DNA of 64,000 bases from Candidatus Nomurabacteria bacterium (GCA_020631855.1 JACKGU010000001.1:447597-511596); one strand, 5' to 3'; shown: positions 22,309-41,229, numbered from the stretch's first letter. Notes: a model not told the origin generated them from the sequence alone. Translations and numbers: made by a program.

Positions 22309-22341
22309 TCGTGTCTAAAAAAAATTGTAGTCGGGCACACA

Positions 22342-24925: not shown

Positions 24926-24982
24926 TGTAGGACGTGATATTATAAATTAACGTAAGGCACAGAATATAAATTTCACATAACA

Positions 24983-25667: not shown

Positions 25668-26055
25668 AATATTTATAAGTTTGATAACTAAATAAAGTTT
25701 ATGTTTTCAGAGCCGAAAAATCAAATTGAATATAACTCGTTTTTATACGATATCTTTTCACAATATACACCATGAGTCGTATATTATACGAGATGGTGGT
25801 AAATTTAGACCAAATAAAAACTGCCTTTATTTTACAATTTTCAAGGAATTGTGCAATCAGAGCTTCAAAAAACAGTACGAGAGTTAAAAATCAAAAACTT
25901 ACAGCCCCAAAACTGTAAAAAGTTATCTTTATGGCTTACGGAAATACTTTTCTTTTAAAGGCAGCGATTTTGCAAAGCTCGGCCAAGAAAACATTAGAGA
26001 TTTTCTACTTCATTGTGAGAAAAAGCACATTTCACCTCAAAGCAGGAATCTGTTT

Positions 26056-26773: not shown

Positions 26774-26863
26774 TGGCGGAGGGAGAGGGATTCGAACCCT
26801 CGTGCCGGTTTCCCGACGCGTCGCTTTCCAGGCGAGCCGATTAGTCCACTCTCGCATCCCTCC
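26774..26863 (-). tRNA. tRNA-Ser (anticodon GGA), CCA encoded
   Basis: GGAGGGATGCGAGAGTGGACTAATCGGCTCGCCTGGAAAGCGACGCGTCGGGAAACCGGCACGAGGGTTCGAATCCCTCTCCCTCCGCCA. 7-bp acceptor, long variable arm, T-loop GGTTCGAATCC. Confidence 0.9.
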
Positions 26864-27000
26864 AAAACTACTGCTTATACTACCATGCAAGGGCTATAAG
26901 CTAAACCCCTGCTGCATATTTCCCGACATATCTTTCGAGCCACGAACCAAACATTCGCCTTTATAACAACGTCAATAACACTAAGCCGATGCGCAAAATA

Positions 27001-28263
27001 CTAGGAAAGAACCTTCTCAGTCTCTGAGGTCGTAAGTAGAGTATACAAAGAAGGAATTGCGAGTAAAAGAGCAAAAACTAAAAAAGTGTAGTTACCTAAC
27101 AAAGAATATAAGAAACCGGATAAAAGAGGCGAGAGTCCGCTACCAAAAGCCAAGATTGACGCGTCCAGACCCGTAACCTGGCCTTGCTGGTGAGGCTCGA
27201 CACTGTTTGCTAAATAGGCTCTGAATGTAGTTATGTTCAAAGAAAGACCCAAATTAACGAAGAAGGCGCTCACTAAAAGCATCGGCAGGGCAAGGTTAAA
27301 GCTCCCGACCATCAGCTTACTAGGCAACAACGGCATGACGAGCATAGAAACAAAAATTATAAATATTCCAACATAAAAAGACTTGAGCTCTCCGTACTTC
27401 TTTCCAAGTTTTGGTACAAAAAAAGCCTGATTTGTAATTGAAAAAAGTCCTATAGCAGCCAGCATTTCTCCCAACTGGTAAACCGAGAGACCAAAGTAAA
27501 TTTGCAATAACAAAGTTATGGTTGTCGTGTAAGCGGCGAAAACAAAAGCAAAAATAATCCTAATATATAAAAGCTTTTTAATTTCTTCACTTTTAAAAAG
27601 ATTGAACTTATTGAAAATGTTCACCTCAGACAACAACTTGATATTAAGGTGATGAGCGCGTTTCTCATACGGCAAGGACTCGGGCAATACAAAAACTATT
27701 AGAAACAAAGTAATAATTGAAATAATTAAAGCAACAAAAATAGTTCCAAGGAGTCCGGGACCCAAGCTATAAGAATAACCTCCAATAATCGGTCCTAATA
27801 AAAAACCCAAACCAAAAACACCGCCCATCATACCAAAAACCTTTGTGCGTTCTTCTTTAACTGTGGAATCCGATACCCAGGCCTGTGCAACTGAAATATT
27901 TCCCCCGGTAATACCGTCAGCTATTCTAGAAATTATTATAATAAGCAAAGGAACAGGTAGCCATCCAAACACGATACGGCCGTGGGCAAAATAAGCTAAG
28001 GTAAATATTAACCAACTAATTATGGTGCCCACCTGGCTAAGAACAAGAATAGGCTTACGGCCGTACCTATCACTTAAAGAACCTAGGAGCGGGGCGGCTA
28101 GGAATTGCGAAAAAGCGTAAGATGACAGAATAGCACCGTATGCAATGCTGAGATACTTTGTAGCTACATACTGCTGGACCATTTCGGGGAGAATCGGTAT
28201 TAATATACTAAAACCAACGACGTTGACAAAAGATAGTAATAAAACCGGCAATAATTTTTTCAT
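27001..28263 (-). CDS. MFS transporter
   Basis: 420 aa, 12 TM. MFS signature GSLSDRYGRKP between TM2 and TM3. Confidence 0.85.
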   Translation of the reverse strand: MKKLLPVLLLSFVNVVGFSILIPILPEMVQQYVATKYLSIAYGAILSSYAFSQFLAAPLLGSLSDRYGRKPILVLSQVGTIISWLIFTLAYFAHGRIVFGWLPVPLLIIIISRIADGITGGNISVAQAWVSDSTVKEERTKVFGMMGGVFGLGFLLGPIIGGYSYSLGPGLLGTIFVALIISIITLFLIVFVLPESLPYEKRAHHLNIKLLSEVNIFNKFNLFKSEEIKKLLYIRIIFAFVFAAYTTTITLLLQIYFGLSVYQLGEMLAAIGLFSITNQAFFVPKLGKKYGELKSFYVGIFIIFVSMLVMPLLPSKLMVGSFNLALPMLLVSAFFVNLGLSLNITTFRAYLANSVEPHQQGQVTGLDASILAFGSGLSPLLSGFLYSLLGNYTFLVFALLLAIPSLYTLLTTSETEKVLS

Positions 28264-28518
28264 TGTAATTTACAGAAAATAGACTCGCTAAAAACGAATT
28301 AGTGGTTTTTTCTCTCACACAACAGTATACCAAATTAGGACACGTTGTTGCTAATTAATTATTTTAAGATCTATGTTTATAATTAACTTCTATAACATTT
28401 AAAAATATATAATTCCCATTAAAACTACATGTTATAGAAATAACAACTGCGCCAAAACGGGAGATAAAAGAAATCCAACAAAGAGTATTTAAAATACTTT
28501 ATGAACACTAGCTACTCT

Positions 28519-28767
28519 TTAAAAAATGAAAGCTAACAATAAAACAACAATGCCCATAACAAACAAGTACTTGGCTTGAAAATTTAGTAGCCTCATCTGC
28601 TTCTTTTCATTAACATCATACGGGACCCATTTTTTGGCCTGTTTTATCATCCAATTTTTGTAAGAATCAGTCTGACCAAAAAAGCCCATTACTATAAGTA
28701 AAGCAGCAACAATAAATAGCGCTGTTTTCTCAAAGTCCAACATATTATAATCTTTTCCTCTTTTCAA
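28519..28767 (-). CDS. small hypothetical membrane protein
   Basis: 82 aa with two hydrophobic helices. Confidence 0.35.
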   Translation of the reverse strand: MKRGKDYNMLDFEKTALFIVAALLIVMGFFGQTDSYKNWMIKQAKKWVPYDVNEKKQMRLLNFQAKYLFVMGIVVLLLAFIF

Positions 28768-29098
28768 ATAGTTAAACTAAAAATATTTGATTACCCTCAC
28801 TATAGAAAAAAATCAAGATTTCTTCCTTTATTTTATCCTTTAACATTCTTCTTGCAAGAATTTTCAGAAAATATGTCGTGTTGTGTGGTGTGTGCTTTTT
28901 ATAATTAACAAATTCTTTGTCTTCACACAAGAACCGAGGGACTGAGGGCGAGGCTCAGTGAAGGTATAAATCGCAACCACGGCCCTATCTGGCGGGACGT
29001 TGTGAACAACGTTAGAACTATTATACAAAACACTCCAGGCTACATCCACATTCCCGACCTACAACCACAATTAGCTATTCGCTCTGCTTATTAGAATG

Positions 29099-32000
29099 TT
29101 ACGCTGACTTAGACCATCTCTGGCGAAGATTTTGCATGGCTACGATGTTCCTAATCATTAATCGATACTCTATAGGGACTTCAATTGCCTTTTTACGGAC
29201 AAACCCTTTGTCCTGCATCTGAGCCAATAACTCCTTAAATTGTTGGTAAGTCAATGTCCTAGTACCATTTTCTCCATTAACTAAATTATCTTTAAGAGCA
29301 TTATAGGCGCTTAAAGCATGTGTTTCGGGGTTATTTCTAAAGTATGAATTTACAACTCCTTCTATAGGAGACTGTTCAACAGTAGTGTCTAGAGGAAGAT
29401 ATTTTTCACCATATTTGGAAAACTCCTGCATTATTACCTGCAAATATGAGGCTGTATCAGTTCTTCCTCTCAACCTTTGTCTTACTAACTCTCCTCCAAG
29501 TTGATTAAGCACTCCATACCTAATTCTAGTTGCTTCAGACCCTTCAATTCCACTTACTTCTAAACATCTAGCTATAAACCCATTAATGAATTGTGCGCCA
29601 TTACCTGATTTCAATAACTTAAACATCTCCACATCTCTTTCTTCTAAAGCCAGGTACATACTTCTATCAATTGCACCAAGCGACTGGCCTGAGGCTTCCG
29701 GATCAATCATATAATTACCAGCATGGGGGTCAGAATGAAAAACAAATACTTTTTCCCCTTCTGGGGTTGTTATGGGAGCAAAATCAAACTGATAATCGAA
29801 GAAACCCAACAAGTTGTCGACAACTTGTTGTTTAGTCTCACTGGAAATTTCAGAAGATGACAGGAACTTGTTGAGTGTGATCCCTTGATACTGATCTTCG
29901 ACCTTGACTTTTTTGGAGGTGTAGCGCCTTTCGGGGGCATCAATGGCAGTTTTTCCGCTTTTTTCATTGTATGATTGAACTGTTAACCTAAAGGCATCAT
30001 CACGCTCAGCGTAAGTAGAATCATTAATATCTCTGATACACCAGGTATTTGAGAGATCTAGCAATGACTCGGCTAGTCGAGCGTTTTGCCTAGTTTTTCC
30101 TCTAGTATTTTGCTCTACTTCACCTAATACCGTTGAACTGAAAGTGTAGGATAATCGAATAAATTCTTCAGCATTAGGGTTTAACATTTTAATAACTACT
30201 TTTTTTGAAGACCCATCTTCGGCTCGAATAGTCGCTCCATAAGTGGTAAAAAGACTCCCTCCTCCTAAATAAGAATCAAGTGAAATTAAATCCTCCTCTA
30301 ATAATCTGGCCAATTCAGGATCACTTTGCGCCTTGGATAGCAAGTTATCCCAAAAACGCAATTTTTCCATTCCTTTCATACTGTCTTGTGTTTGTGACAA
30401 ACGTTCACGGACAGCAGGTTCAAAATTTATAAGCTGAACTGCCATTTGCATACCTCTTACGAAAACCGGAGAAGTTTCTCCCGCTTTGATCATTGCTTCA
30501 GTAGCTGCAGGCAGATTGCTCACTATTTCAGTTTGCTCCTGACTATAAGCAGAAATTACTTGACCTTGTAAGTTCTCTAAGGTTTCGAAGTATGTAGAGC
30601 CGCTTTCTTGAGCTTGTTTGCCAATGACAGAATTAGGTTGATGATGATATCTAAAACCGAAATAGCGTATATTACGAGTTCCTGAAGTAAGAATTTGTGG
30701 CAGATCTTCCGAATAATCTTTGTTTTTCACCTTTCTGTAAACGTATTTCCCATCTTCCCTTTCTCTAAACTCCACATTTCGTAGCCTTCTCATATCAACA
30801 GAGTCGGTTTTGAGAGCCTGGAACATGAAGGGAATAAGCATCTGTGCAGCTGGCAACCCTACCACTTTTGCGTCACCTTTTTTGATAGCACTACTCAAAG
30901 CTGCCCTGAAAAACTCTTCTTTTAATCCCAAGCCATCAACAAGCATTCTCTCAAGTAAGTTGCGACCATCTTCAGAAACAAGTAACCCGTCTTGATCAGA
31001 CATAGCTTTTAGCGCGATTGCCAACTTTTGGCTATCTGGCAGATTTTTAAAGTAGTCAATGGTATCACTGAAAGTAGCGAAAGCCGACCTGCCAGACTCA
31101 GTTAAAATAAACTTTCCTGATTTCTTATCGTATTGAATGTCATTTTTTCGCCATTCCTTTTCACCGAGATAAGTCCTAACCCATTCAACAGCTAAATCAG
31201 TAGAGACTTCTCTTGCAACTTGACCACTACCAGAAGCAGTCTTGATTAAGAGATCTGCTTTTTGGGTTAAGATGGAACTAGCAATATCGGTTGTAGCAAC
31301 TCCATCTAGACTTTCCTCACCAGAAATATACTCAATTGCAAGCTCATCTAATCTCTGTTTAAAGGCTTGGTAAGTGGGTATATCTGTGATTTGCTCTGCA
31401 ACCAGAATGGCCCCTTCAAATCCAAGCAACTTATATTCCTTGAAATAAAAGTCCATCTTATCCTGAATCACAACTTCAGGGTCATTCAGGTATGCGGTAT
31501 TAAGGGCTTTTATCAATTCTCTACGTTGGGGACTGTAAGGAAAATTTTCATTTAATAACCCTACTAATGCTGGATAATCTTGTTGTCGAAGTTTTCCTGG
31601 CTCGGTTAGTCTATGCAACTCATCTCTCACAGGTTTTGCAAGTAAAACAGAGTAAACATCGTCTTCATACAAAGAAAATTTTGCATTAACTGGTCGCTGG
31701 CTATATTTGTTTTTAGCGTCCTTCACATAAGCCGCAAGATCCTGGATGTTCTCAAAATGTACTTCTTCTATTTGCTTAACTATCTCTTGGACAAAATGTA
31801 GTTGATAAAATCTATCAAAGTCCCTTATGCGATCTCTTTCGAAAACTCCATTCCGATCATCTTCATTTGCCAATTTAAACAACGGGTGACATAAGGCTAA
31901 AAGCTGGTATTGATCCATCGCACCTATGTCGGCATGGGTATCTCTCATGATAGATTCAACAAATACAAAAAGCTTTTCTTCGGAGGATGCAATGGTGTTG

Positions 32001-34189
32001 GTAACAAATTCAATTTTAGTACTAGTTCTCTCAATCTCTCCCTTTTTGCCAGCTTCAGCATAAAGCAACTCTCTATCTAAACTATATTCTTGAATCAGGT
32101 CATCAATCGTAAGCTTTCGTGGTTTCGGCTCTTCACCTTGCCCTGAAGCCTCAACAAACGAGCTTTTAAGATTTGCTCGCATTGAGTTCATGGCACTCCA
32201 CTTAGGATCACCATGCTCTCGCCAGTTCTTCATAGCAGAGTACCCGATTTTGTCTTGGACTAAAGACTCAAGATGTTTTCGTGCAAAGTCGTAATCATCA
32301 AGATAGGCAAGACCTACTGCAACGTATTGTGCTTTGGTTTCTGGATCTAATTCATGATCATAGGCGTATTTATTTAATAGTTGTTCAATATCCCATCTGG
32401 ATTTACCGTCAATTTGCTCCCTAAACTCGGCAGGGGTTGGCAAGGACTCTATTTCTTTTCCATCATCACGTCTAACCAACTCTTTTCCAAATATCTTTTT
32501 ATAAGCAGATTCGATTATTTGTCTATTGCCAGGTCCAATGTTTTTATCCTTTATGGGGAAATAATAAGAATTTGTTAGTGGTTCAAAGCCAGCCAATTTA
32601 ACCGCCTGAAAGATATCTTCAATTTGTTCCTGGTCCAACTCTCCATCCGGAACATCAGGCAAATAATATCGTTCAATATAGTCAAATAAAATATTTTTTA
32701 ACTCTTCATGTAGTTGAGCTGAGCGGTTTGAGTCATATCTCAATGAGTTTCCGTCTGAATCCACAAAACTACCATCCTTTGTGGTAGGGAGGTCTCCTTT
32801 AACTAAATTATTCACACTACCTAAAAACTGGGCTATAGAGTCCACATCCGTATAAAACACAGCGTCTTTATCAGTAAACTGATCAAATCGATAGTTTACA
32901 AAATAAACTAAGCTCCTGAGGGGATCGCCATTCCTCTCATAACCAAACAATTTTTGAGTTAACTCGCTGATTTTGCTATTTTGAAACATATGTTCTGCAA
33001 TTTGTGCGTAACCAGTAATTTCCGAAATGTCTTTGAAACTTGGTGACAAATGAGAATAACCTCTGGTATTTGTTAAGAAAAACATCTTAATTTCATTTTC
33101 TGACATTCCTTCAGCCATTAATCTTTGAACTACCAATGATCCGACTTTCTTAGCAACCTCTTTTTCCGTGTCTTTCTCTGGGTATACCTCGCTCAAGCCA
33201 TAATATGAGCCATTGTCAGCTACATCAAAAAAAGTGCCAAGGTCTCTTGGGTGCAGTTTTGTTAAATATTGTTCAACAGAGCCTAAATCATCCTTAACAG
33301 CAGCATCAATAATTGCTTCAAAATTAGTCATTCTTGGCTCTCTCCTTAATTCTGGAGGTAGCGGGGTGTAATCAAGATGACTTGTCTCGTAATCTTTTAT
33401 CGCATGGATTCCTAATTGTTGTATTGCTCTTAAGACAGGAGCCTGGTGTTCAGTTCCTCTGCGATTGCCAAAATGATCAGCTAACTTAGTAAGCACGTCT
33501 GCAGTGGCAGTGGACTTAAGACCTACTTTTTCTAGCAATTCTGGAGCTCCAAAATCAGAGGCCATTTCATGCAACCAATCAACACCCAATGAAGTACCTC
33601 GTTTTGCCTCTGCGTTAAATGCAGCTCTAGTAGTACCATTTGTCAAATGTTTAACCTCATGAGCCATAATACCCACTACCTCATCTAGGCTGTCGTAAAG
33701 ATTCATTAAGGATTGCGAAATGAAGATTGTCCCATCAGGATAAGCAAAGGCAGTGGGTTCCTGACCTTTGTTCATGATGACAACTCTTACTTTTCCTTCC
33801 CACTGTTGATTACCCTGAACCATTTTGTCGACATAATCTTGGATAATATCCGTCCTGGCACTACCCACCTCCAAGGCCTTAGTTGCAGACAAGTATTTAA
33901 ATTCTGCTCGAACTTGTTCGGTAATGTCCTTGTTAACTTTTTGCCCCTTACTATCTTCTGCCTCAAGAATTATTGGCTCTAAAACATCAATTTCCACTGC
34001 AGGGTTTGAGTTATATTCATTATCTAAATCAATCCTGACATGTTCGGCTTTGTTTTTGTTTCTACGCCCCCTAAACAACTCTGTGTTGGTAGACAGGGAA
34101 GTAGGCACCTCTTTTACTGATACTGCAGACGGAGTTTCCCCTTGTGGAGGGACACTAAGATTTTCTGGTAGAGATCCTTCAAAACTCAT
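29099..34189 (-). CDS. giant mosaic protein (1696 aa): N-terminal HEXXH metalloprotease-like motif + long central region + C-terminal ABC1/UbiB-type atypical kinase-like motifs
   Basis: Residues ~130-180: NKGQEPTAFAYPDGTIFISQSLMNLYDSLDEVVGIMAHEVKHL (zincin HEXXH in M48-like context). Residues ~1290-1520: LGGGSLFTTYGA (Gly-rich loop), VVIKMLNP (ABC1 VAVKVQRP-like), FVFHSDPHAGNYMID (ABC1 HADPHPGN catalytic loop), AIDRS. No signal peptide or TM seen. Confidence 0.75.
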   Translation of the reverse strand: MSFEGSLPENLSVPPQGETPSAVSVKEVPTSLSTNTELFRGRRNKNKAEHVRIDLDNEYNSNPAVEIDVLEPIILEAEDSKGQKVNKDITEQVRAEFKYLSATKALEVGSARTDIIQDYVDKMVQGNQQWEGKVRVVIMNKGQEPTAFAYPDGTIFISQSLMNLYDSLDEVVGIMAHEVKHLTNGTTRAAFNAEAKRGTSLGVDWLHEMASDFGAPELLEKVGLKSTATADVLTKLADHFGNRRGTEHQAPVLRAIQQLGIHAIKDYETSHLDYTPLPPELRREPRMTNFEAIIDAAVKDDLGSVEQYLTKLHPRDLGTFFDVADNGSYYGLSEVYPEKDTEKEVAKKVGSLVVQRLMAEGMSENEIKMFFLTNTRGYSHLSPSFKDISEITGYAQIAEHMFQNSKISELTQKLFGYERNGDPLRSLVYFVNYRFDQFTDKDAVFYTDVDSIAQFLGSVNNLVKGDLPTTKDGSFVDSDGNSLRYDSNRSAQLHEELKNILFDYIERYYLPDVPDGELDQEQIEDIFQAVKLAGFEPLTNSYYFPIKDKNIGPGNRQIIESAYKKIFGKELVRRDDGKEIESLPTPAEFREQIDGKSRWDIEQLLNKYAYDHELDPETKAQYVAVGLAYLDDYDFARKHLESLVQDKIGYSAMKNWREHGDPKWSAMNSMRANLKSSFVEASGQGEEPKPRKLTIDDLIQEYSLDRELLYAEAGKKGEIERTSTKIEFVTNTIASSEEKLFVFVESIMRDTHADIGAMDQYQLLALCHPLFKLANEDDRNGVFERDRIRDFDRFYQLHFVQEIVKQIEEVHFENIQDLAAYVKDAKNKYSQRPVNAKFSLYEDDVYSVLLAKPVRDELHRLTEPGKLRQQDYPALVGLLNENFPYSPQRRELIKALNTAYLNDPEVVIQDKMDFYFKEYKLLGFEGAILVAEQITDIPTYQAFKQRLDELAIEYISGEESLDGVATTDIASSILTQKADLLIKTASGSGQVAREVSTDLAVEWVRTYLGEKEWRKNDIQYDKKSGKFILTESGRSAFATFSDTIDYFKNLPDSQKLAIALKAMSDQDGLLVSEDGRNLLERMLVDGLGLKEEFFRAALSSAIKKGDAKVVGLPAAQMLIPFMFQALKTDSVDMRRLRNVEFREREDGKYVYRKVKNKDYSEDLPQILTSGTRNIRYFGFRYHHQPNSVIGKQAQESGSTYFETLENLQGQVISAYSQEQTEIVSNLPAATEAMIKAGETSPVFVRGMQMAVQLINFEPAVRERLSQTQDSMKGMEKLRFWDNLLSKAQSDPELARLLEEDLISLDSYLGGGSLFTTYGATIRAEDGSSKKVVIKMLNPNAEEFIRLSYTFSSTVLGEVEQNTRGKTRQNARLAESLLDLSNTWCIRDINDSTYAERDDAFRLTVQSYNEKSGKTAIDAPERRYTSKKVKVEDQYQGITLNKFLSSSEISSETKQQVVDNLLGFFDYQFDFAPITTPEGEKVFVFHSDPHAGNYMIDPEASGQSLGAIDRSMYLALEERDVEMFKLLKSGNGAQFINGFIARCLEVSGIEGSEATRIRYGVLNQLGGELVRQRLRGRTDTASYLQVIMQEFSKYGEKYLPLDTTVEQSPIEGVVNSYFRNNPETHALSAYNALKDNLVNGENGTRTLTYQQFKELLAQMQDKGFVRKKAIEVPIEYRLMIRNIVAMQNLRQRWSKSA

Positions 34190-34446
34190 AACTTCATTAT
34201 GCCATAATGACTAAATTAGCGAAACATGAACAAGTGCCATAAGATATATCACGAGCCCTGAGCCACTGTGGCCACTTTTGTGGGGCGTTTGCTGCCTGGT
34301 TGGAGAAGTTATACCTCCGGAGCTTTTAAACCGCTTCTTGGGGACGTTGTGAAGAACGAAAAACCAAACGTTTTAATAGCTTAACCTGCATTTCTATAAA
34401 CACCAAAAGTTTGATAACAATAAAACGATGTAGCTTTTTCATAAGA

Positions 34447-35337
34447 TTATCTGATAGTGGCTCTACTAACTGGTCCATCTAACTCATTGGAGAAGCTAAT
34501 GAGTTGACCGCCATTGGTAAAGGCAATGCTGATATTTGGCGTTTCTGTGGATTCGTAGACCTTAATGCAGGGAACGCCGTTGCCGTTGTAATACAAGCCT
34601 TCAATGTCCTTATTTAAGTCCTCACTGCAGGTTTCAAGCGGTTGGTTATGCTGGATTGTTTGCGCTTCACCCCTCCAAATGAAAAAATAATTTACCCTAT
34701 CATTACCACCGTCTTTTTTGCCAGTTTCCAGTGCCAATTTACTCAGATCAATGTTGCCAATAGACGAGGAATGTTTGGCAATAAAGGCTTTGGCAATTTG
34801 TTCCACCTCTTCCTGAGAGTAGTTAGCGGAGTAATCATACTCTTTGCCCTCACTAAACCAGCGACTGCCATCAGTCCTGTATCCCCAGGTTCCAGGAGTT
34901 TCTTCTACCTGCAAAACATGATTAGTTTCAGGATCCACAATAAAGTAAGTTAAGCCAACAGTATAGGTTTCACCTTTGGCAGGAACAAACTTGTCTTCCT
35001 CCAAGCTATAAAAAGCATTACTGCACTCATATTCCACTTCCACGGTCGGCATTTCCAAGAATTCACGAATAGAGGCAATAGCTTTTTCTCGCTCATCTAC
35101 CGGCCGAGCGGTCAGAGAACACAACTTTTCTTTTAATTCTTTGGTGGCTTGAGCGGTGTGGTCCCGATATTTTGGGTTGGTACTAAGCTTTTCTGTGATC
35201 TCTTTGATCTCCTGGATCTTTTGATCCTCAACCTGTTGTGCCTGAAACGACTGGTATTTTGAGCGTACGACATTAAGACCAAAGACGATTACTGTCAGAA
35301 GTAAAGCTGTGATTATTAAACCTTTTATGATTTTCAT
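34447..35337 (-). CDS. membrane-anchored hypothetical protein
   Basis: 296 aa. N-terminal signal anchor MKIIKGLIITALLLTVIVFGLNVV, then a hydrophilic extracytoplasmic domain. No motif recognised. Confidence 0.45.
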   Translation of the reverse strand: MKIIKGLIITALLLTVIVFGLNVVRSKYQSFQAQQVEDQKIQEIKEITEKLSTNPKYRDHTAQATKELKEKLCSLTARPVDEREKAIASIREFLEMPTVEVEYECSNAFYSLEEDKFVPAKGETYTVGLTYFIVDPETNHVLQVEETPGTWGYRTDGSRWFSEGKEYDYSANYSQEEVEQIAKAFIAKHSSSIGNIDLSKLALETGKKDGGNDRVNYFFIWRGEAQTIQHNQPLETCSEDLNKDIEGLYYNGNGVPCIKVYESTETPNISIAFTNGGQLISFSNELDGPVSRATIR

Positions 35338-35370
35338 ATAAACCTCCTTTCAGAGTGTTGGGATGTTAGC

Positions 35371-35712
35371 TTGGGTGGTCCCAAAATGTCAAATTCAAAT
35401 TATTTCTTTCACCTGGCTAAATATAACATAAATGATGACAAGGAGTCCGTGTTGAATGTGACTGAGAGTCACTACCCTAAAGACATGGGTAAACCAATTT
35501 CACACCAACACATTCTCAAAAAATTTGGAGCTAAACTGCAGAAAACCAGGAAAAGCAAAGGGGTCACTCAGGAAGAACTAGCGTTCAAGATGTCCATGGA
35601 CAGAACCTACATTGGTATGATTGAGCGTGGGGAACGCAACCCTACTATACGAACACTGTACAAAATTGCCAAGGCTTTGAAAGTTGATTCTTCAGAATTG
35701 TTGCCGTTTTAG
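35371..35712 (+). CDS. XRE-family helix-turn-helix transcriptional regulator
   Basis: GVTQEELAFKMSMDRTYIGMIERGERNPTIRTLYKIAKAL is a Cro/C1-type HTH. Divergent from the upstream minus-strand gene (cI/cro-like arrangement). Confidence 0.8.
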   Translation: MGGPKMSNSNYFFHLAKYNINDDKESVLNVTESHYPKDMGKPISHQHILKKFGAKLQKTRKSKGVTQEELAFKMSMDRTYIGMIERGERNPTIRTLYKIAKALKVDSSELLPF

Positions 35713-35720
35713 CTTATACT

Positions 35721-36362
35721 TCACCACTCGTTTGGTCCTACAGTTCCAGAAGCGTTTAACGATTGAATTGCAGTTCCTGTGGCTAATGAAGCTAGAGTAC
35801 TTGGTGGGATCAGTTTCTCGACTTCAACGGGCATAATCGGTAATTGTTCCTTGTAGAAACGCCACACTTTTACTTTAAGAACATCGTTTCTTTTCAAATC
35901 TTCATAATATTTCTTTACAGCCTCTTCTAAATCCTTAACTGCCCACCCTAAATGAAGCATGGTCCCTCTCTTGTTTTGAGTCAGATGAATAGATTTGTTT
36001 TTATCCAAATCGCCTTCATGATACAAAACAAAGTGGTGGGGAGAATAATAGTGTGTCAACGACCAACGCAAGTCTTCAATTTTTTGCCAATCGTACTTGT
36101 TCATGTACTTTTGGATAAACTCTTTAAACCTGGCTTTTGTATTACTCGGTTCCGTTAAACCTGTATATAAACCACCAAAATATTCAATAGCACAACACCA
36201 TAAAATAAAAGCTCCCACCAACGCTCCGTTATCATCACAGGTTCCGTCTTTGCTCATTCTGCAACACCGGCGGATGTCGCCAATAGACCAGTCGATTATC
36301 CTATCAAAATGTGCATCTATGTATGCTTTAGCCAGTTGGATTTCACCCTTCTTAATATTCAT
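35721..36362 (-). CDS. hypothetical protein (downstream gene of two-gene cassette)
   Basis: 213 aa, Cys-rich N-terminal region (RRCCRMSKDGTCDDNG...WCCAIEYFGG). No known family recognised. Confidence 0.45.
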   Translation of the reverse strand: MNIKKGEIQLAKAYIDAHFDRIIDWSIGDIRRCCRMSKDGTCDDNGALVGAFILWCCAIEYFGGLYTGLTEPSNTKARFKEFIQKYMNKYDWQKIEDLRWSLTHYYSPHHFVLYHEGDLDKNKSIHLTQNKRGTMLHLGWAVKDLEEAVKKYYEDLKRNDVLKVKVWRFYKEQLPIMPVEVEKLIPPSTLASLATGTAIQSLNASGTVGPNEW

Positions 36363-36364
36363 AT

Positions 36365-37204
36365 TTATTTGCTTAACTTCAAAAAATTTATAAAAACTCG
36401 ACCGAAGCCGGTATTGATGTATCCTCCAGGGTAATCAAACTGATCTGGTCTTTTGCCCTTATAAAGCTCGTCAGCTGTAGGGGCTTCAGCAACCATGGGC
36501 GAGCTAACTTTCATAGGCTGTATCAATGATTCTGACTGGAGCCGTTGGATTGATCGATCGATAACAGCCTCATCTATTGCGCGGTCCTTAAGCAAAGTAC
36601 AAATAGAGTCGCGAGTAACACCTTTTGCCCCATTGCCACCGTTTTTGGGCAAGTTAGAAAGAAAATGTTGGTCCATTGTTTTGAGAACCAGCAAATCAAC
36701 ACTATCAAGATTCAGCAACGTTGATAGCACTAAATCTTTTGTCTGAGGGTGAACATCTAAATTTTGCAGAGCAGTGGCCACAAATTCTGCAATAACTTCA
36801 TCAAAACCTCTTCCTGGATGAGTCAGTAGTTTTCTGGTAATGTCCTCTAGTCTAAAAACGATTGAATCTTCAAAATAGTCAACTGCTTCCTGCTTAAGTT
36901 CAACCCCATTAAGCCTTTTATTTATATGCTCAATGCACGAGTCAATTTCAGCCTCACGCTTTTTGTTGATTTTTTCATCTACATAATCTTTCCAAGTTCC
37001 CAGAGTCAGTTGGTAGAAAGGGAAGATGTACTGTGCCAGATTGTGGAAGAAGTGACCGGTTAAACTAACAACCTCTTCCTTATTATCAACAGTAGCATTA
37101 TCCAGCACTTTACCCACTGACTGAGCTAAATTCCTTTGCTGGCGAGGCATTAATGATTGGTTGTTATCTTGACTCATAAATTGACCGTAGTGTAACAAAA
37201 GCAA
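36365..37204 (-). CDS. hypothetical protein (upstream gene of two-gene cassette), weak HEPN-like Rx4H motif
   Basis: 279 aa. Contains ITRKLLTH (R-x4-H). 3-nt spacing to the downstream gene. No other motif recognised. Confidence 0.4.
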   Translation of the reverse strand: MLLLHYGQFMSQDNNQSLMPRQQRNLAQSVGKVLDNATVDNKEEVVSLTGHFFHNLAQYIFPFYQLTLGTWKDYVDEKINKKREAEIDSCIEHINKRLNGVELKQEAVDYFEDSIVFRLEDITRKLLTHPGRGFDEVIAEFVATALQNLDVHPQTKDLVLSTLLNLDSVDLLVLKTMDQHFLSNLPKNGGNGAKGVTRDSICTLLKDRAIDEAVIDRSIQRLQSESLIQPMKVSSPMVAEAPTADELYKGKRPDQFDYPGGYINTGFGRVFINFLKLSK

Positions 37205-37320
37205 ACTGTTCTTACCAGATAATGATTACTACTCGTCACTATATGTTGGTATAAATCACCACTTAATTTATTGAGACTTACAGTGTGTTTTGCCTAGACT
37301 TTTAGTCAGCAGAACATACT

Positions 37321-37587
37321 ATGACTAGAAAATTTGACGCTTCTACTAACGATTCCCATTTTTTGAGCTATGACATTGGTTTGGCAGCTGCTTTAGCTAC
37401 CCTTCATTTTGAGTTGATCTCCTTGAACCGGGACAATCCCAGAAAAATAGGCTTTATCTTTTCTCGCACTCCTGAGCTGGAACAAGCCACTCAGGAGTAC
37501 TTTGCTGGTCGGTTATCAGTGGATGCCCGGTCGTTCTTTGAAAACATCAAAATGCCTAAAAACAGAATTTTCTCATCAGCAATATGA
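37321..37587 (+). CDS. hypothetical small protein (first gene of phage-like overlapping operon)
   Basis: 88 aa. Its stop overlaps the next start. Confidence 0.35.
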   Translation: MTRKFDASTNDSHFLSYDIGLAAALATLHFELISLNRDNPRKIGFIFSRTPELEQATQEYFAGRLSVDARSFFENIKMPKNRIFSSAI

Positions 37588-37778
37588 AGATCAGTGAAGC
37601 CCAACTCACCAGCTTCAAAGCTTTATACAAACAGCATTTTGGTGAGGAGTTGAGCCGGGAAGACGCTTTAGAGAAAGCTCTCAAATTGGTCCGAATGATG
37701 CAGCTGGTTTATAAGCCAATGACCAAAGAGCAATACCAACAAGTTATCAAACGCCAGCAACAAATTTTTAACTTATGA
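37584..37778 (+). CDS. hypothetical small protein
   Basis: 64 aa. ATGA-type overlaps on both sides (translational coupling). Confidence 0.35.
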   Translation: MKISEAQLTSFKALYKQHFGEELSREDALEKALKLVRMMQLVYKPMTKEQYQQVIKRQQQIFNL

Positions 37779-38524
37779 AAGACAGAGCCTTTAACATTAA
37801 AGATGAATCCAGTGACAAAGCCTACTTTTCTATTGTACCTAATTACATCATTAACCACTCCAGTTTAGAGGAAAGAGGCTTTTATTTAACCCTTAAACGC
37901 ATCGCTGGTGAGCATGGTGCTGTTTACTACTCAGCCAGAGAGTTGGGCGCTAAGTGTGGTATCAGCAAAAACACCGTCTACAGGTTATTGAGGTCCCTGC
38001 TTAAAAGAGGCTGGATAAAAGAATCCGGCACTATTCCCGCCAAAACTAAACCTCGCATGACCTACTCAATTGTTGATTTATGGCAACTCAATACAGACTT
38101 TTATCGCTCGCAAAAGATTGTCCCATCAGAGGGACAATCTCAATTAAATAAACAGATAGTTACAGCAGAGGGGCAAACATCGTCCCAAATGAGGGACACA
38201 AAAGAAGAACCAGGTAAAGAAGAAAATAATTCCGCTGAGAAAGTTCAAAAGAAAACCCGCTCGACTAAGTGCCCCAATCCTCATGGTCATCACCGTTGCA
38301 TTGAAAACATTCACTCAGTCGAATTGGAGTTTGGCAAAAAATTCGTCAATTTTCCTAAACAAATCAATGCTCTGCACAAATTGTATAAAGCAGGTTTTGG
38401 TGATGAGCAGATCAATCACTGTCTTAACGCTATGGACAAGGATCCATTTTGGAGCGAGCAGGGCTGGGACTTGATGAATGTGGCCAATACCCTGAGTAAA
38501 GGAGGTAAAAAATATGGCGTTTAA
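37775..38524 (+). CDS. HTH/winged-helix DNA-binding protein (phage replication/regulatory-like)
   Basis: ARELGAKCGISKNTVYRLLRSLLKRGWIKESG HTH segment. C-terminal part has Cys/His-rich KCPNPHGHHRC. Confidence 0.45.
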   Translation: MKDRAFNIKDESSDKAYFSIVPNYIINHSSLEERGFYLTLKRIAGEHGAVYYSARELGAKCGISKNTVYRLLRSLLKRGWIKESGTIPAKTKPRMTYSIVDLWQLNTDFYRSQKIVPSEGQSQLNKQIVTAEGQTSSQMRDTKEEPGKEENNSAEKVQKKTRSTKCPNPHGHHRCIENIHSVELEFGKKFVNFPKQINALHKLYKAGFGDEQINHCLNAMDKDPFWSEQGWDLMNVANTLSKGGKKYGV

Positions 38525-38831
38525 AAAAGATCAACCAGCCGATAAACAACTTAAGACGGTCCCAGAGGTGTTAATAGACAATCAAGAGTTGGCTTTAAGA
38601 AGAAGGGCGTGGAGTCAGTATTACAGTAAAGTCAGAAGGTCCACTACTTGCAGGCGATTTTTTAAGATGAAAGCAGCTTTTAAAGCAGGCAATATGAAAC
38701 TCTTTTGGACACTCCATAGGCAAAACCATCAGGCATTAGTTGAAGATAGAGCTATGGCCACTCCGCCTTTTCCGGATCCGGATATAGAAATGGTTTATGG
38801 TCGCTTAGGCAGAAAGGAAAACTATGAATGA
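38514..38831 (+). CDS. hypothetical protein
   Basis: 105 aa, overlapping neighbours on both sides. Confidence 0.3.
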   Translation: MAFKKDQPADKQLKTVPEVLIDNQELALRRRAWSQYYSKVRRSTTCRRFFKMKAAFKAGNMKLFWTLHRQNHQALVEDRAMATPPFPDPDIEMVYGRLGRKENYE

Positions 38832-39399
38832 AATCATAACCGCTAAATTATCAGGAGAAACCGAGCAGCAGTACACTGCCTTTCTGTTGTACTGTGAAGT
38901 GGGAAGCTTGCGAAAGCTCTTTGACACCTGGGACAAGTTAGGGCAGGCTTCGGGCGAAGTGAGGGCAGATTTTATGAATAAACTTGGGGATCGACCTAGC
39001 CATGCCACCATTGAGCGTTGGAGCAAAAAATACCAGTGGGTTAAGCGAGCCGATGCTAGACTCTCAGAAGAAATGCAGGATTTGGATGAAAAGCTAAGAA
39101 AAATTAAACAGCGTCGTGCCTATCTTATTTCCGAGATTTTTTGGGAGAAACTCAAGCGGGTGCAAAAGCAAATGAAGTCAGGCGAACTAGCAACAGTCCA
39201 AGAAGTTAAAACTCTCTGGGAAATGATGCGCATCGAGTTTGGGGAAACTACCAGTAAACACGAGTTTGTAAACGGAATTAACGAAGCTGAGCAAAAGCCT
39301 CCTACCCCGGAAGAAGAGGAATTGGGCATGGCTATTGATCAGGCGGTGAAAGATTACTACGACAAGTTGCGCCAGAAAAAAGATGAAACAAACAAATGA
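38824..39399 (+). CDS. hypothetical protein (phage-like)
   Basis: 191 aa. Position immediately upstream of the recombinase. Confidence 0.3.
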   Translation: MNEIITAKLSGETEQQYTAFLLYCEVGSLRKLFDTWDKLGQASGEVRADFMNKLGDRPSHATIERWSKKYQWVKRADARLSEEMQDLDEKLRKIKQRRAYLISEIFWEKLKRVQKQMKSGELATVQEVKTLWEMMRIEFGETTSKHEFVNGINEAEQKPPTPEEEELGMAIDQAVKDYYDKLRQKKDETNK

Positions 39400-39468
39400 T
39401 GACTAAAATACATCTTTTAGCCTAGCTATTAATGAACGCTTGCGCTACTATGTAGCTAAAAACAGAAC

Positions 39469-41229
39469 ATGACCATACCAAAAAATAAGAAAAGTTTACG
39501 CTATGTGCTCTATGCTCGTAAGTCTTCAGACAGCGAGGATCGGCAAGTGCAATCCATCGAAAGCCAAGTCACCAAGCTCAGAGAACTGGCTCAGGATAAA
39601 GGTTTTCGGATAGTCAAATCTTTCACTGAAGCCAAGTCAGCCAAGAAACCAGGTAATCGAATCGTTTTTGAAGAAATGATGGCCACTGTTGAGAATGGTG
39701 AAGCAGACGGAATCCTTTGCTGGCAGATCAATCGTCTTTCCAGGAATCCGGTTGATAGCGGCAGAATCAGCTGGCTTCTCCAACAAAATGTGATCAAGTC
39801 CATCCAAACCTATGACCGGGAATACTTGCCAGGTGATAATGTCATTATCTTTAGTGTGGAAGCTGCCAGCTCCAACCAATACATCTTAGACTTGAGCAAG
39901 AATGTCAAACGGGGCTTGGAAACCAAACTTAATAAAGGCTGGTTGCCCAATCTAGCTCCGGCCGGATACTTAAACGAAAAAGTCGAAAACACCATAGTCA
40001 AGGATACAGAGCGGTTTAATTTAATTGCCAAAATGTGGGAATTAATGCTGACCGGAGCCTACACTCCTCCCCAAATTCTCAAGATTGCCAACGAAGATTG
40101 GGGCTACTTAACCAGAAAAACTAAGAGACTAGGTGGCAAGCCCTTATCTAGAAGCGGTATCTATCGAATCTTCACCAATATTTTCTATGCCGGAGTCCTG
40201 GAGCATAAAGGCAGACAGTATGAAGGCAAGCATGAACCAATGATTACTCTGGACGAGTTTGACAGGGTTCAGATGCTTTTAGGTAGAAAGGGCAAACCAA
40301 GACGGAAAACCCATGACTTTGCTTTTACTGGTTTTATTCGTTGTGGAGAGTGTGGTTGCCTCTACACAGCTGAAACTAAGAGGAAGCTGATCAAAAAGAC
40401 CGGCAAATTCAAAGAATACACCTATTACCACTGCACCAGGAAGAAAAAGACCACTAACTGCAGCCAACGCAAGATGGTCCCTTTAAACAAACTAGAAAGA
40501 CAAATTGAGGAGGAACTAGCCAGTATTACTATCATTCCCGACTTTAGGAAGTGGGCCCTAGAAGTCTTAAACGAAAATAATGACCGAGAAATTGCCGATA
40601 GAACCAAGATTCATGAGATGCAAAGCAAAACCTTGCTAACTACCCAGGCGGAATTGGATAACCTAACCAAGATGAGATATCGAGACTTAATTGATGACGA
40701 GATGTTTCTCAAACAAAAGAATGAACTCCAAACCAAGTTAACCGATCTTAAGGCAAAATTGCGCCACACAGAAGAAAGAGCTGAGAAATGGCTAGAACTG
40801 ACTGAGCAAACCTTTAACTTTGCTACCTACGCTCACTCGGCTTTCCTAACCGGAGGGTTAGAACTGAAGAAGGAAATTTTGATGGCTCTGGGTTACAACC
40901 CCAAAATCAAGGCAGGAAAACTCTACCTGGAGACGATGAAGTGGTTTGTGCCCATCAAAAACAATGCCCCAGCACTGCAAAAGGAATATCAAAGGTTAGA
41001 ACTAACCAAAAAGAGCGATAATCAGGCATATTCAGAAGATTTGTTGGCTCTGCGTACACGATGGCGGAGGAGGTGGGATTCGAACCCACGTGCAGGTTGC
41101 CCCGCGCTTGGTTTTCGAGACCAGCCCGTTATGGCCACTTCGGTACTCCTCCACATACAAAATATAGCCAAGGAAAAACGTGCGTTGAACCAAATTGCTT
41201 ACAATCTTAGGCGCATGAGTCGTCCCTAG
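39469..41229 (+). CDS. large serine recombinase (serine integrase)
   Basis: N-terminal resolvase catalytic domain YVLYARKSSDSEDRQVQSIESQ (catalytic Ser), recombinase domain, zinc-ribbon FIRCGECGCLY...YYHCTRKKKTTNC, coiled-coil C-terminus. The last ~55 codons run across tRNA-Ser(CGA) on the opposite strand, so the true C-terminus is uncertain. Confidence 0.85.
   Translation: MTIPKNKKSLRYVLYARKSSDSEDRQVQSIESQVTKLRELAQDKGFRIVKSFTEAKSAKKPGNRIVFEEMMATVENGEADGILCWQINRLSRNPVDSGRISWLLQQNVIKSIQTYDREYLPGDNVIIFSVEAASSNQYILDLSKNVKRGLETKLNKGWLPNLAPAGYLNEKVENTIVKDTERFNLIAKMWELMLTGAYTPPQILKIANEDWGYLTRKTKRLGGKPLSRSGIYRIFTNIFYAGVLEHKGRQYEGKHEPMITLDEFDRVQMLLGRKGKPRRKTHDFAFTGFIRCGECGCLYTAETKRKLIKKTGKFKEYTYYHCTRKKKTTNCSQRKMVPLNKLERQIEEELASITIIPDFRKWALEVLNENNDREIADRTKIHEMQSKTLLTTQAELDNLTKMRYRDLIDDEMFLKQKNELQTKLTDLKAKLRHTEERAEKWLELTEQTFNFATYAHSAFLTGGLELKKEILMALGYNPKIKAGKLYLETMKWFVPIKNNAPALQKEYQRLELTKKSDNQAYSEDLLALRTRWRRRWDSNPRAGCPALGFRDQPVMATSVLLHIQNIAKEKRALNQIAYNLRRMSRP
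41062..41152 (-). tRNA. tRNA-Ser (anticodon CGA), CCA encoded
   Basis: GGAGGAGTACCGAAGTGGCCATAACGGGCTGGTCTCGAAAACCAAGCGCGGGGCAACCTGCACGTGGGTTCGAATCCCACCTCCTCCGCCA. Long variable arm, perfect acceptor and T stems, one 27:43 mismatch. Confidence 0.8.

Follow-up and report, generated by a model that had tools for sequence, protein, structure and literature searches.

The window analysed here, a stretch of 64,000 nucleotides from a Candidatus Nomurabacteria genome (GCA_020631855.1, JACKGU010000001.1:447597-511596), carries two tRNA-Ser genes on the minus strand, tRNA-Ser(GGA) at 26774-26863 and tRNA-Ser(CGA) at 41062-41152. A tyrosine recombinase gene at 26056-26691 is frameshifted and lies outside the mobile element described below. 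To the right of tRNA-Ser(GGA) follow an MFS transporter gene (27001-28263) and a gene for 82 amino acids, and then, on the minus strand, a gene for a giant protein of 1696 amino acids (29099-34189) with an N-terminal M48 metalloprotease motif (Peptidase_M48) and a weak ABC1 kinase-like region according to Pfam. A stop codon interrupts the giant gene in some populations. The next protein on the minus strand (34447-35337) is 296 amino acids long, carries a membrane anchor at its N-terminus and has weak homologues at the same position in the related loci L103, L114, L115 and L058/L059. Divergent from its gene is that of an XRE-family HTH regulator (35386-35712, plus strand; HTH_3, E=1e-17; PHROG repressor families), which is 108 or 75 amino acids long depending on the assembly and the start codon. 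The next two minus-strand genes encode proteins of 213 and 279 amino acids (35721-36362 and 36365-37204). This cassette gave no match in Pfam, PHROG, PADLOC or NCBIfam, is absent from all 80 relatives considered below and represents element-specific cargo.

Five plus-strand genes at 37321-39399 overlap by 4-11 nt. The first two (37321-37778) encode a DUF5659 protein of 88 amino acids and a helical protein of 64 amino acids, which are the backbone of a wider family and candidate excision or regulatory factors. The third encodes a 249-aa winged-helix protein resembling DnaD/O-type initiators (37775-38524; HTH_36, DnaD_N; PHROG 186/678/270, E about 5e-9), and the last two (38514-39399) encode proteins of 105 and 191 amino acids. 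The 191-aa protein matches phrog_6299, "terminase small subunit" (E=2e-15), as do 37 of 37 tested homologues, and its AF2 model (pLDDT 84.9) had no significant fold match, terminases included. A large serine recombinase (LSR) is encoded at 39469-41229 on the plus strand, and its open reading frame continues antisense through tRNA-Ser(CGA). It is composed of Resolvase, Recombinase and Zn_ribbon_recom domains (PF00239, E=4e-19; PF07508; PF13408), and residues 212-442 align with the C-terminal domain of A118 integrase (4kis, E=2.7e-10). The reading frame is intact and retains the conserved catalytic motif YARKSS, which is nearly invariant in an alignment of 36 sequences. The NCBI annotation of the source genome calls no recombinase gene at this locus. 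An earlier sequence-only reading of the same DNA had placed both tRNA genes, the giant gene, the two-gene cassette, the five overlapping genes with their winged-helix protein and a serine integrase running into tRNA-Ser(CGA) as we find them. The divergent pair that it described as "cI/cro-like" is also real, the label being an analogy only.

Extent of the element and its empty site

The sequence-only reading had taken the whole ~14 kb between the two tRNA-Ser genes as one genomic island. We find a smaller mobile unit of 12,072 bp (28,996-41,067), whose left end is intergenic and separated by 2.1 kb from tRNA-Ser(GGA), which lies to its left. An empty site at tRNA-Ser(CGA), which that reading had proposed to look for, was found in two independent assemblies of the same species as the window (L041/L051, GCA_020427845.1, and L047, ERZ28655783), in which window position 41062 is joined to 28995 with an overlap of 6 bp. 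These strains lack only 28,996-41,061 and retain 26,864-28,995 at 99-100% identity. The MFS transporter gene, correctly recognized but wrongly counted as part of the island, is therefore chromosomal, and so are the 82-aa gene and tRNA-Ser(GGA). Filled and empty genomes are 100% identical in the right flank over 10.7 kb, up to 41062, which indicates a recent event. Within one species, some strains harbour the element and others have a precise empty site instead. Contigs from other samples break off at the junctions, namely at 28995, 41061 and 41066. Base composition deviates exactly over 29-41 kb (GC 0.406 vs 0.381), where the tetranucleotide distance is about twice the baseline.

The hexamer TGGCGG is the sole sequence common to both junctions. 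It is the antisense of the CCGCCA-3' end of tRNA-Ser(CGA), which is intact in filled and empty genomes. The direct repeats of the tRNA 3' end that the sequence-only reading had suggested searching for are limited to this 6-bp core: repeat searches of the window found no other tRNA-derived repeat, and none of useful length is to be expected, a short core being normal for serine recombinases. Because only 6 bp of the tRNA are repeated, the distal end of the element carries no displaced tRNA fragment. Instead of a product of excision, the empty site could be the ancestral state, and a 28-mer spanning the attP of the circularized window element had 0 matches in JGI metagenome contigs. We consider it very probable that 28,996-41,067 is a 12.07-kb integrative, plasmid-like element of Patescibacteria which was put into the extreme 3' end of tRNA-Ser(CGA) by an LSR of the A118 type.

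Attachment sites and the split recombinase gene

The left attachment site, attL (28970-29020), consists of a B arm up to 28989, the core TGGCGG at 28990-28995 and the P' arm GACGTTGTGAACAACGTTAGAACT, which contains the T-loop-like motif TTAGAAC. In attR (41037-41090), the P arm is formed by the last LSR codons, the core lies at 41062-41067 and the B' arm is the acceptor stem and T arm of the tRNA, with TTCGAAC. The reconstructed attP thus reads …GCGTACACGA TGGCGG GACGTTGTGAAC…, and attB in the empty site reads …GGCCCTATC TGGCGG AGGAGGTGGGATTCGAAC…. The P' arm is kept in relatives with attP-type junctions and matches over ~27 nt that of a circular relative, L164, a contig which closes through an 88-bp terminal overlap into a circle of 10,383 bp lacking any tRNA. 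Across P' and B' arms, a motif [TA][TC]NGAA[CT] starts at nt 23 from TGG at attP-type junctions and at nt 18 at tRNA junctions, an outward displacement of exactly 5 bp in the P' arm relative to the tRNA. For LI integrase, the motif bound by the zinc-ribbon domain (ZD) is likewise reported to be shifted by 5 bp, lying nearer to the centre in attB than in attP half-sites (PMC3783163). The offset in our alignments matches the prediction of the A118-integrase model. We propose that the zinc-ribbon domain recognizes the T-loop of the tRNA (TTCGAAC) in attB and, in attP, a sequence that mimics this loop 5 bp farther from the core, and that this offset may be the feature by which LSRs distinguish the two sites. 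Strand exchange would take place inside TGGCGG, most likely at GG (41066-67 and 28994-95), and insertion at the 3' end of tRNA-Ser(CGA) regenerates an intact tRNA. Evidence that the LSR drives integration by attP x attB recombination is indirect and comes from the filled and empty sites and the circular relative.

A second, decayed copy of core and P' arm (TTGGGGACGTTGTGAAGAACGAAAAACC, plus strand) is present at 34338-34370, where it repeats 28994-29011 directly at 17 of 18 positions. It is degenerate, since a 25-mer search allowing 3 or fewer mismatches missed it. The giant protein is recurrent cargo, divided from the core element by this P'-like site: it is lacking at all 80 related LSR loci, and its homologues adjoin four different recombinases or occupy plain chromosomal contexts. 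The element would be a composite of a core (34.3-41.07 kb) and a giant-protein module (29.0-34.3 kb) joined across the decayed site, an origin reconstructed from a single 33-nt relic.

The conserved part of the LSR stops at W532 (TGG, 41062-41064), and the att core corresponds to codons W532-R533. In the integrated state, residues 534-586 are encoded by the antisense strand of the tRNA and by flanking DNA. A further 32 codons and a stop codon, DVVNNVRTIIQNTPGYIHIPDLQPQLAIRSAY, lie at the opposite end of the element (28996-29094, plus strand) and continue the LSR frame only once the element is excised. The LSR gene thus spans its own attachment site, and upon insertion its 32 terminal codons come to lie at the opposite end of the element. 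Excision would reunite them with the gene and yield an enzyme of 565 amino acids, and the integrated copy would encode a variant of 586 amino acids whose tail is not under selection. The sequence-only reading had missed both that the recombinase frame crosses the att site and that the same arrangement occurs in most relatives.

It is nearly as probable as not that the reading frame over the att site has no functional meaning, W532 being the effective C-terminus, both tails tolerated junk and the overlap a product of genome compaction. Tails beyond the xRT motif are not conserved family-wide, and in the integrated form the tail is whatever the antisense of the tRNA happens to encode. Conservation of the first ~10 tail codons is explicable at the DNA level and could stem from a DNA-binding site instead of the protein, since these codons coincide with the P' binding site. 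However, in the subgroup of the window the tail is conserved well past the 25-bp half-site, in the motif YIxIPDL, with synonymous sites saturated and few non-synonymous changes. The tail of circular L164 (WLRTVNNVRTIIQQQNEYIYIPDL; VNNVRTIIQ..YIYIPDL) is homologous to that of the window (WRDVVNNVRTIIQNTPGYIHIPDL) and differs mostly synonymously; L148, L155 and L135 also have homologous tails, that of L148 being identical to that of L164. Over tail codons 18-24 (YIxIPDL), window and L148 differ by 7 synonymous and 1 non-synonymous changes, a signal of selection that is based on four sequences and seven codons. In addition, the LSR family has a C-terminal extension of ~45 amino acids that ends exactly at the core and is missing from phage LSR relatives, which also speaks against a meaningless overlap.

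A bolder proposal, rather improbable as a whole in our view, is that the split recombinase gene senses the state of the element. The complete enzyme of 565 amino acids, with its YIxIPDL tail under selection, would be encoded by the excised circle alone, in an integration-competent or stable form, and the integrated copy would give a tail-swapped 586-aa enzyme differing in activity, stability or directionality. Moreover, the family would have evolved to read the universally conserved tRNA T-loop as the zinc-ribbon-domain motif, and small changes near the core would retarget it among at least 10 tRNA species, so that nature would offer a set of retargetable integrases for tRNA ends.

Nature of the element and its family

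The element proteins contain no capsid, portal, tail, large terminase or lysis genes in PHROG and Pfam scans, consistent with the earlier remark that structural phage genes are absent; a prophage was rejected on this ground. The sole phage-type matches are the replication-initiator-like winged-helix protein and the terminase-small-subunit-like protein. Searches of the element proteins with Pfam and NCBIfam gave no match to relaxase, oriT, type IV secretion or coupling proteins, as would mark an ICE or IME, and the element contains no recognisable genes for cell-to-cell transfer. An Islander-type island was also rejected, the recombinase being a serine and not a tyrosine enzyme and the tRNA repeat being confined to 6 bp. 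The element agrees with the characteristics of large serine recombinase systems: catalytic, Recombinase and zinc-ribbon domains, very short att identity and the 5-bp P'/B' offset. We suggest that the DUF5659 and 64-aa genes together with the XRE regulator control excision, and that the DnaD/O-like protein may replicate the excised circle.

The gene layout is compatible with that of PICI-like elements, the terS-like call being one PHROG profile with no fold match. It is unlikely, though conceivable, that the element is a phage satellite (PICI- or tycheposon-like) whose terS-like protein diverts the packaging of a helper phage to the excised and replicated element. Its size of 12 kb, the integrase, XRE regulator and replication initiator, the terS-like gene adjoining the integrase and the absence of structural genes would suit such a life style, and tycheposons share the logic at tRNA genes. 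However, only the closest subgroup has the terminase-like gene, and in most of the family a Zn-ribbon protein or a rolling-circle Rep takes its place. No helper phage is known, the AF2 model has no significant fold match to a terminase and the family is absent from IMG/VR.

Even less probable is a decayed remnant of a prophage or element fixed in place, with the empty genomes resulting from chance deletion between the TGGCGG hexamers. The lack of structural and transfer genes, the lack of a recombinase in the NCBI annotation and the giant gene split by a stop codon in some populations would fit such decay. On the other hand, a 6-bp microhomology deletion hitting both att cores exactly is very unlikely, the LSR frame is intact, the junction is the same as in 50 of 80 relatives and the right flank speaks for a recent event. 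The earlier description as an integrative element and not a complete prophage therefore holds, and "remnant" does not, since the arms of the att sites agree with the consensus of the family (the P' arm also that of the circular relative), the LSR is intact, filled and empty sites with identical right flanks coexist and a circular relative exists. Finally, it is extremely unlikely that the entire 14.4 kb between the two tRNA-Ser genes is a single island: these genes are 0.4-2.2 kb apart in distant relatives (436 bp in L010) with different genes between them, so that the MFS/82-aa segment is also lineage-variable, but the empty-site strains keep this segment, the tetranucleotide deviation begins at ~28-29 kb and 26.9-29.0 kb has neither a recombinase nor an att-like sequence linked to it.

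Patescibacteria (CPR bacteria) have tiny genomes, and to our knowledge their mobile elements are barely described. The integrative element of the window belongs to a large family in this group that is apparently undescribed. We found 4335 LSR homologues, in which similarity ends near residue 532. At 50 of 80 metagenomic loci a tRNA gene on the opposite strand abuts the conserved end of the LSR (Ser 16, Asn 17, Gln 6, plus seven other tRNAs), at 49 of the 80 the tRNA CCA is the TGG codon of W532, and about 12 have attP-type junctions. Among the 47 relatives with more than 3.5 kb of upstream sequence, the 64-aa gene is present in 46 and the DUF5659 gene in 39; the two are always adjacent, 0.9-4.5 kb upstream of the LSR. 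The window element fits this definition, with the Trp532 codon at the tRNA CCA end and the DUF5659 and 64-aa pair upstream. Circular L164 encodes this pair, a rolling-circle Rep-like gene, an LSR and a Type III R-M system. tRNA genes behave as hot spots where elements occur in tandem, as in tycheposons and Islander-type islands. No member of the LSR-tRNA family was found in IMG/VR, and the LSR is at most 29% identical to annotated recombinases of phages or plasmids. The element, with its exact boundaries, att sites and empty site, stands for thousands of recombinases, a very large family that phage, plasmid and IMG/VR catalogues lack.

Comparison with known systems

Compared with phage serine integrases (A118/LI, Bxb1, phiC31, TP901-1), the LSR is the same three-domain enzyme with a very short identity core, and its motif offset of 5 bp is that of the LI integrase model. 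Unlike these integrases, it targets the CCA/acceptor end of a tRNA gene and not a protein-coding gene, its carrier is not a phage and its ~45-aa extension carries the attP core within the reading frame. The att sites fit the structural model of attP/attB discrimination, and the family offers dozens of natural attP/attB pairs to test this model. Genome engineering could also profit from serine integrases whose tRNA targets are short and conserved.

Islander-type and tycheposon islands (Prochlorococcus) likewise occupy the 3' side of tRNA genes, do not inactivate them and are modular, combining an integrase with replication genes and distally placed cargo. In contrast to Islander-type islands, the element uses a serine recombinase and shares 6 bp with the tRNA. 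As far as the abstract of the Islander study states, integration into tRNA genes is usually carried out by tyrosine integrases, which were also found in 910 of 937 tycheposon-type elements. Here, integration at the CCA/acceptor end, without tRNA duplication, would be the work of a serine recombinase. SCCmec (Ccr) and Tn4451-type IMEs are, like the element, small, non-conjugative and moved by large serine recombinases. The similarity of the LSR to CcrB, CcrA and XisF in NCBIfam is weak, with scores far below the family cut-offs, and the targets of these systems (the rlmH 3' end, or sites within genes) differ from the tRNA end.

An attP within a gene of the element is known from SSV-type (fusellovirus) integrases and from the integration-dependent immunity of mycobacteriophages, both of which use tyrosine integrases. 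In these systems, integration alters the product of the gene that holds attP: SSV integration splits the gene mid-way, and in mycobacteriophages the repressor is truncated. In contrast, integration of the element of the window detaches no more than the 32 terminal codons of a serine recombinase, which makes this enzyme a candidate for self-regulation of directionality.

Boundaries and gene content

Contigs were looked up by identity of their encoded 147-aa and MFS proteins. Among those recovered, the element is present in several metagenomic copies and in the genome of the window itself (GCA_020631805.1, 100% identical), and two assemblies lack it, GCA_020427845.1 (contigs L041/L051) and ERZ28655783 (L047). 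In BLAST alignments these empty-site contigs match the window at 100% from the right flank to 41062 and resume at 28995 (99.1-100%), with a 6-bp overlap at the join. The overlapping hexamer TGGCGG, found at 28990-28995 and 41062-41067, is the antisense of CCGCCA-3'. The element therefore spans 28,996-41,067, which is 12,072 bp with one core counted, and the MFS transporter, an 82-aa gene and tRNA-Ser(GGA) are chromosomal. The sequence-only reading had placed an island between tRNA-Ser(gga) (26774-26863, minus strand) and tRNA-Ser(cga) (41062-41152, minus strand; both by ARAGORN). Mobility at tRNA-Ser(CGA) is borne out by the empty site with its exact join in both assemblies, while the left part of the proposed island belongs to the chromosome. 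A deviation in GC content (0.406 versus 0.381) coincides exactly with the element, as does one in tetranucleotide distance, which is about double the baseline. A further suggestion of that reading, direct repeats of the tRNA 3' end, was not borne out: a search of 25.5-42 kb returned only the paralogous tRNA-Ser genes. Such a result is expected for a serine recombinase and is thus not evidence against mobility. The junction sequences are GGCCCTATCTGGCGGAGGAGGTGGG (empty-site attB) and GCGTACACGATGGCGGGACGTTGTGAAC (reconstructed attP), the latter giving 0 exact matches in JGI metagenome contigs. Contigs from other samples, such as SRR12358676, SRR23493589/90, SRR8205411 and ERZ27248703, terminate at 28995, 41061 and 41066, an outcome that assembly-graph branching in populations with both forms would produce. 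The element is a real, precisely delimited integrative element and is probably active.

GCA_020427845.1 is 100% identical to the window across 10.7 kb of the right flank and 99.1% in the left flank (27 mismatches in 3.3 kb). Its collinearity with the window is lost just upstream of a tyrosine recombinase (L041 13983-14900; window <25733), where an ADP-ribosyl-exotoxin-like gene stands in place of the window's serine hydrolase.

All genes listed in the sequence-only reading were recovered as ORFs: the MFS transporter (27001-28263), a 1696-aa giant protein (29099-34189) with a Peptidase_M48 match and a weak ABC1 match, a membrane-anchored 296-aa protein whose gene diverges from an HTH_3/XRE gene, a 213/279-aa cassette of two genes without annotation (35721-37204), five overlapping plus-strand genes (37321-39399) and the integrase. 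The last is a 586-aa large serine recombinase (LSR) ORF (39469-41229) with Resolvase, Recombinase and Zn_ribbon_recom domains, which stays in frame through the antisense of the tRNA, its codon 532, TGG (41062-41064), being the complement of the tRNA 3' CCA. PHROG matches comprise a repressor-type XRE protein, a DnaD/O-like replication initiator (249 aa), the integrase, and a 191-aa protein that matches a family annotated as terminase small subunit (E=2e-15). The same scans yielded no structural phage genes among the element proteins, in agreement with the sequence-only reading. Cargo genes had no matches in PADLOC or NCBIfam and the giant protein had none in a PDB sequence search. Promoter and terminator scans gave no signal above shuffled background, and only weak operator-like repeats were found in the divergent intergenic regions. 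In the recorded gene lists of GCA_020631805.1 (L038, NCBI) and a JGI copy (L040) the LSR locus has no gene call though its ORF is intact. This is likely due to the overlap with the tRNA, and LSRs that overlap tRNAs may be systematically under-annotated.

A recombinase family at tRNA ends

Homologues of the LSR at E<=1e-10 number 4335. The top 120 share 62-96% identity, are mostly from Patescibacteria, and lose similarity at about residue 532. The tails of most homologues are tRNA antisense (e.g. WRRRWDSNPR, WLPGLDSNQD), and a minority share the pattern W-x6-[IVF]-R-T. A profile scan of metagenome contigs gave 80 LSR loci at 61-82% identity. At 50 of the 80 an opposite-strand tRNA (ARAGORN) abuts the conserved LSR end, and in 49 of these 50 the CCA is the W532 codon; the tRNAs are Asn (17), Ser (16), Gln (6), Glu, Trp, His and Lys (2 each), and Asp, Pro and Met (1 each). 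The contig stops within 75 nt past the conserved end in 11 of the 80 loci, about 12 have a non-tRNA (attP-type) junction, and 5 show a tRNA 3' half only. These five are L125, L128, L129, L159 and L178, the half in L178 being identical to tRNA-Asn up to the anticodon loop by comparison with L177. They look like halves displaced by a further element that crosses over in the anticodon loop, in nested or tandem use of one tRNA.

Upstream sequence exceeds 3.5 kb in 47 loci; 46 of these have a homologue of the window's 64-aa gene and 39 one of its DUF5659 gene, always as an adjoining pair upstream of the LSR. None of the 80 loci has the giant protein or the 213/279-aa cassette. In most relatives a Cys-rich, Zn-ribbon-like protein of about 200 aa (TTPCNYGGKRYWFICP...CGRRVGVLY...FGCRHC; L111-L115, L119, L121, L132, L137 and others) lies directly upstream of the LSR, at the position of the window's terminase-like gene, and could be an accessory factor in recombination. 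In L186, the left end of the related element was sought and not located. IMG/VR gave no match in a single-protein LSR scan. A profile scan there returned only distant phage relatives (32-37% identity, about 420-440 aa), which differ from the window family in that they do not abut tRNAs and end about 45 residues earlier. No LSR relative above 29% identity was found among annotated phages and plasmids.

With attachment positions numbered from the T of TGG as 1, the T-loop TTCGAAC begins at position 18 in every tRNA junction, whereas a T-loop-like motif (TTAGAAC, TCCGAAC or TTCGAAC) begins at position 23 in attP-type junctions, in the window's left junction attL and in L164, a circular relative. 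In LI integrase of the A118 family, the zinc-ribbon domain (ZD) motif occupies positions 16-24 of the attP half-site and lies 5 bp nearer the centre in attB (Rutherford et al. 2013, PMC3783163), a shift that underlies attP/attB discrimination (PMC3783163). The window LSR aligns with the sequence of the LI integrase structure 4kis. We infer that the family may read the tRNA T-loop as the ZD motif of the chromosomal arm B' and a T-loop mimic as that of the element arm P', which would put the crossover near positions 5-6, where TGGCGG has its final GG. For the left arms (P in coding sequence, B in the tRNA downstream flank) convincing symmetry was not found.

Detached tail, proposed composite structure and lifestyle

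Among 98 contigs tested for circularity, only L164 (Ga0172369_10009880) is circular, its 88-bp terminal overlap giving a 10,383-bp circle without a tRNA. The attP-type P0006 contigs showed no terminal overlap, and all end at a poly-T about 50 nt past the stop codon. L164 encodes a 644-aa protein, DUF5659, the 64-aa protein, a 376-aa protein matching G2P-type rolling-circle Rep just above the Pfam cut-off, a 563-aa LSR and a Type III restriction-modification pair. Its LSR ends in ...SIRAHW LRTVNNVRTIIQQQNEYIYIPDLRIYASA (stop), and the window LSR with both junctions joined ends in ...ALRTRW RDVVNNVRTIIQNTPGYIHIPDLQPQLAIRSAY (stop). The final 32 codons and the stop of the latter lie at 28996-29094, filling the gap up to the giant gene stop codon at 29099; integration has therefore detached the LSR 3' end, which is now 12 kb off. 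The tail is kept at the protein level past the 25-bp half-site. Across the YIxIPDL codons the window and L148, whose tail is identical to that of L164, differ by 7 synonymous and 1 non-synonymous changes, and tail codons 11-25 give a pS near 1 and a pN near 0.3 in a small sample. These substitutions point to purifying selection on a tail peptide that would be producible from the excised form only.

The element appears to be composite. A 17/18 repeat of the junction P' arm at 34341-34358, with its surroundings TTGGGGACGTTGTGAAGAACGAAAAACC, carries a 2-nt deletion, is preceded by no P arm, and resembles a core and P' arm in decay. It lies precisely where the giant gene gives way to the 296-aa gene, and rightward of it (34.3-41.07 kb) the layout is that of a 5.3-kb minimal relative (L059). 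The giant protein has only about 30 homologues. Those at 65-69% identity lie in housekeeping neighbourhoods with no recombinase, at 74% the gene adjoins a different LSR element (LSR end again ...ETW at the CCA of tRNA-Asn), at 77% it is near a tyrosine integrase, and at 81% it is followed directly by a 436-aa LSR. We read this as repeated capture of the giant gene by mobile elements. In our reconstruction a core element would have gained the giant-gene module, the outer P' arm now being the functional one. Tandem arrays exist in the family: L101 (ERZ27316756 k141_104463) carries two different LSR elements in series at tRNA-Gln(ctg), with a 489-aa LSR overlapping the tRNA and, upstream, a 559-aa LSR of the window family whose closing attP-type junction is some 7 kb away from this tRNA. 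In the ERZ795048 and JGI 3300009772 populations (L003, L049, L050) gene calls split the giant gene into two ORFs (477 and 1214 aa), apparently because of a single-base difference, which suggests that some of the population is losing a working copy of this cargo gene.

No relaxase, secretion or virion genes were found in the element. A satellite lifestyle is possible but weakly supported: phrog_6299, the family annotated as terminase small subunit, is matched by the 191-aa protein and by each of the 37 homologues tested, but the protein's confident AF2 model (pLDDT 84.9), an N-terminal helical bundle plus a 48-residue helix, retrieved nothing at E<=0.001 in a fold search of PDB and BFVD, and in most relatives other genes fill its position. 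The data would fit equally well with an element that replicates as a small plasmid and is then taken up by transformation or some other passive means.

Genomic neighbourhood and known systems

Housekeeping genes make up the flanks: RpoD, DnaG, UvrD, an aminoacyl-tRNA synthetase and a Na+/H+ exchanger. The nearest species-representative genomes are Patescibacteria MAGs, several named Candidatus Saccharibacteria, with exchanger identities of 56-63%. A 1.1-Mb contig, L010, has the order exchanger, tRNA-Ser(cga), tRNA-Ser(gga), DnaG, RpoD with 436 bp between both tRNAs, and in L005 unrelated genes occupy 2.2 kb between them; the inter-tRNA space is therefore lineage-variable. A second compositional anomaly (19200-23500; GC about 0.35, tetranucleotide distance 0.20-0.23 versus a baseline of about 0.11) covers genes for DUF998, GH10 xylanase-like and LD-carboxypeptidase proteins that lie between those of DnaG and the aminoacyl-tRNA synthetase; in L010, a distant relative, DnaG adjoins tRNA-Ser(GGA). 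Secondary BLAST matches showed an intergenic repeat of about 145 bp in two inverted copies (22161-22307 and 24970-25114; 81.6% identity).

ARAGORN also places tRNA-Ala, tRNA-Arg and a third tRNA-Ser(gct) farther right in the window. Paralogous tyrosine recombinases at 25860-26691 and 47346-48260 point into the 3' ends of tRNA-Ser GGA (26774) and GCT (48294). With the LSR, a recombinase thus lies 3' of all three tRNA-Ser genes in a 22-kb stretch. The first is frameshifted within a poly-A run, so that a 211-aa catalytic-domain ORF is left, for which many assemblies have identical calls; the second is in several fragments. A tyrosine integrase split as in SSV, with its C-terminal domain at 26 kb and its N-terminal domain at 47 kb, was rejected, these being two separate decayed paralogues with both domains in each. 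Between tRNA-Arg and tRNA-Ser(GCT) the window has 3.5 kb (44900-48290) versus about 0.7 kb in L010; the additional DNA, which holds small membrane-protein genes (a DUF805 gene among them) as well as the decayed tyrosine recombinase, probably represents an island that is old and eroded.

In conclusion, the element is of an ordinary kind, a recombinase-driven genomic island, with unusual features common to a very large family. These are the targeting of tRNA-gene CCA ends by a serine recombinase, the position of the attachment core within the LSR ORF and, as the tail comparison points to, a selected C-terminal tail detached on integration. The literature searched, with incomplete coverage, gave nothing relevant on tRNA acceptor-stem serine integrases, Saccharibacteria serine recombinases or DUF5659, and for that reason the family can be called undescribed only provisionally. 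The Islander work describes tRNA integration as usually the domain of tyrosine integrases, and IMEs with serine recombinases are described as inserting within genes (PMC5704250). The nearest functional analogue is the tycheposons, yet 910 of 937 of these use tyrosine recombinases.
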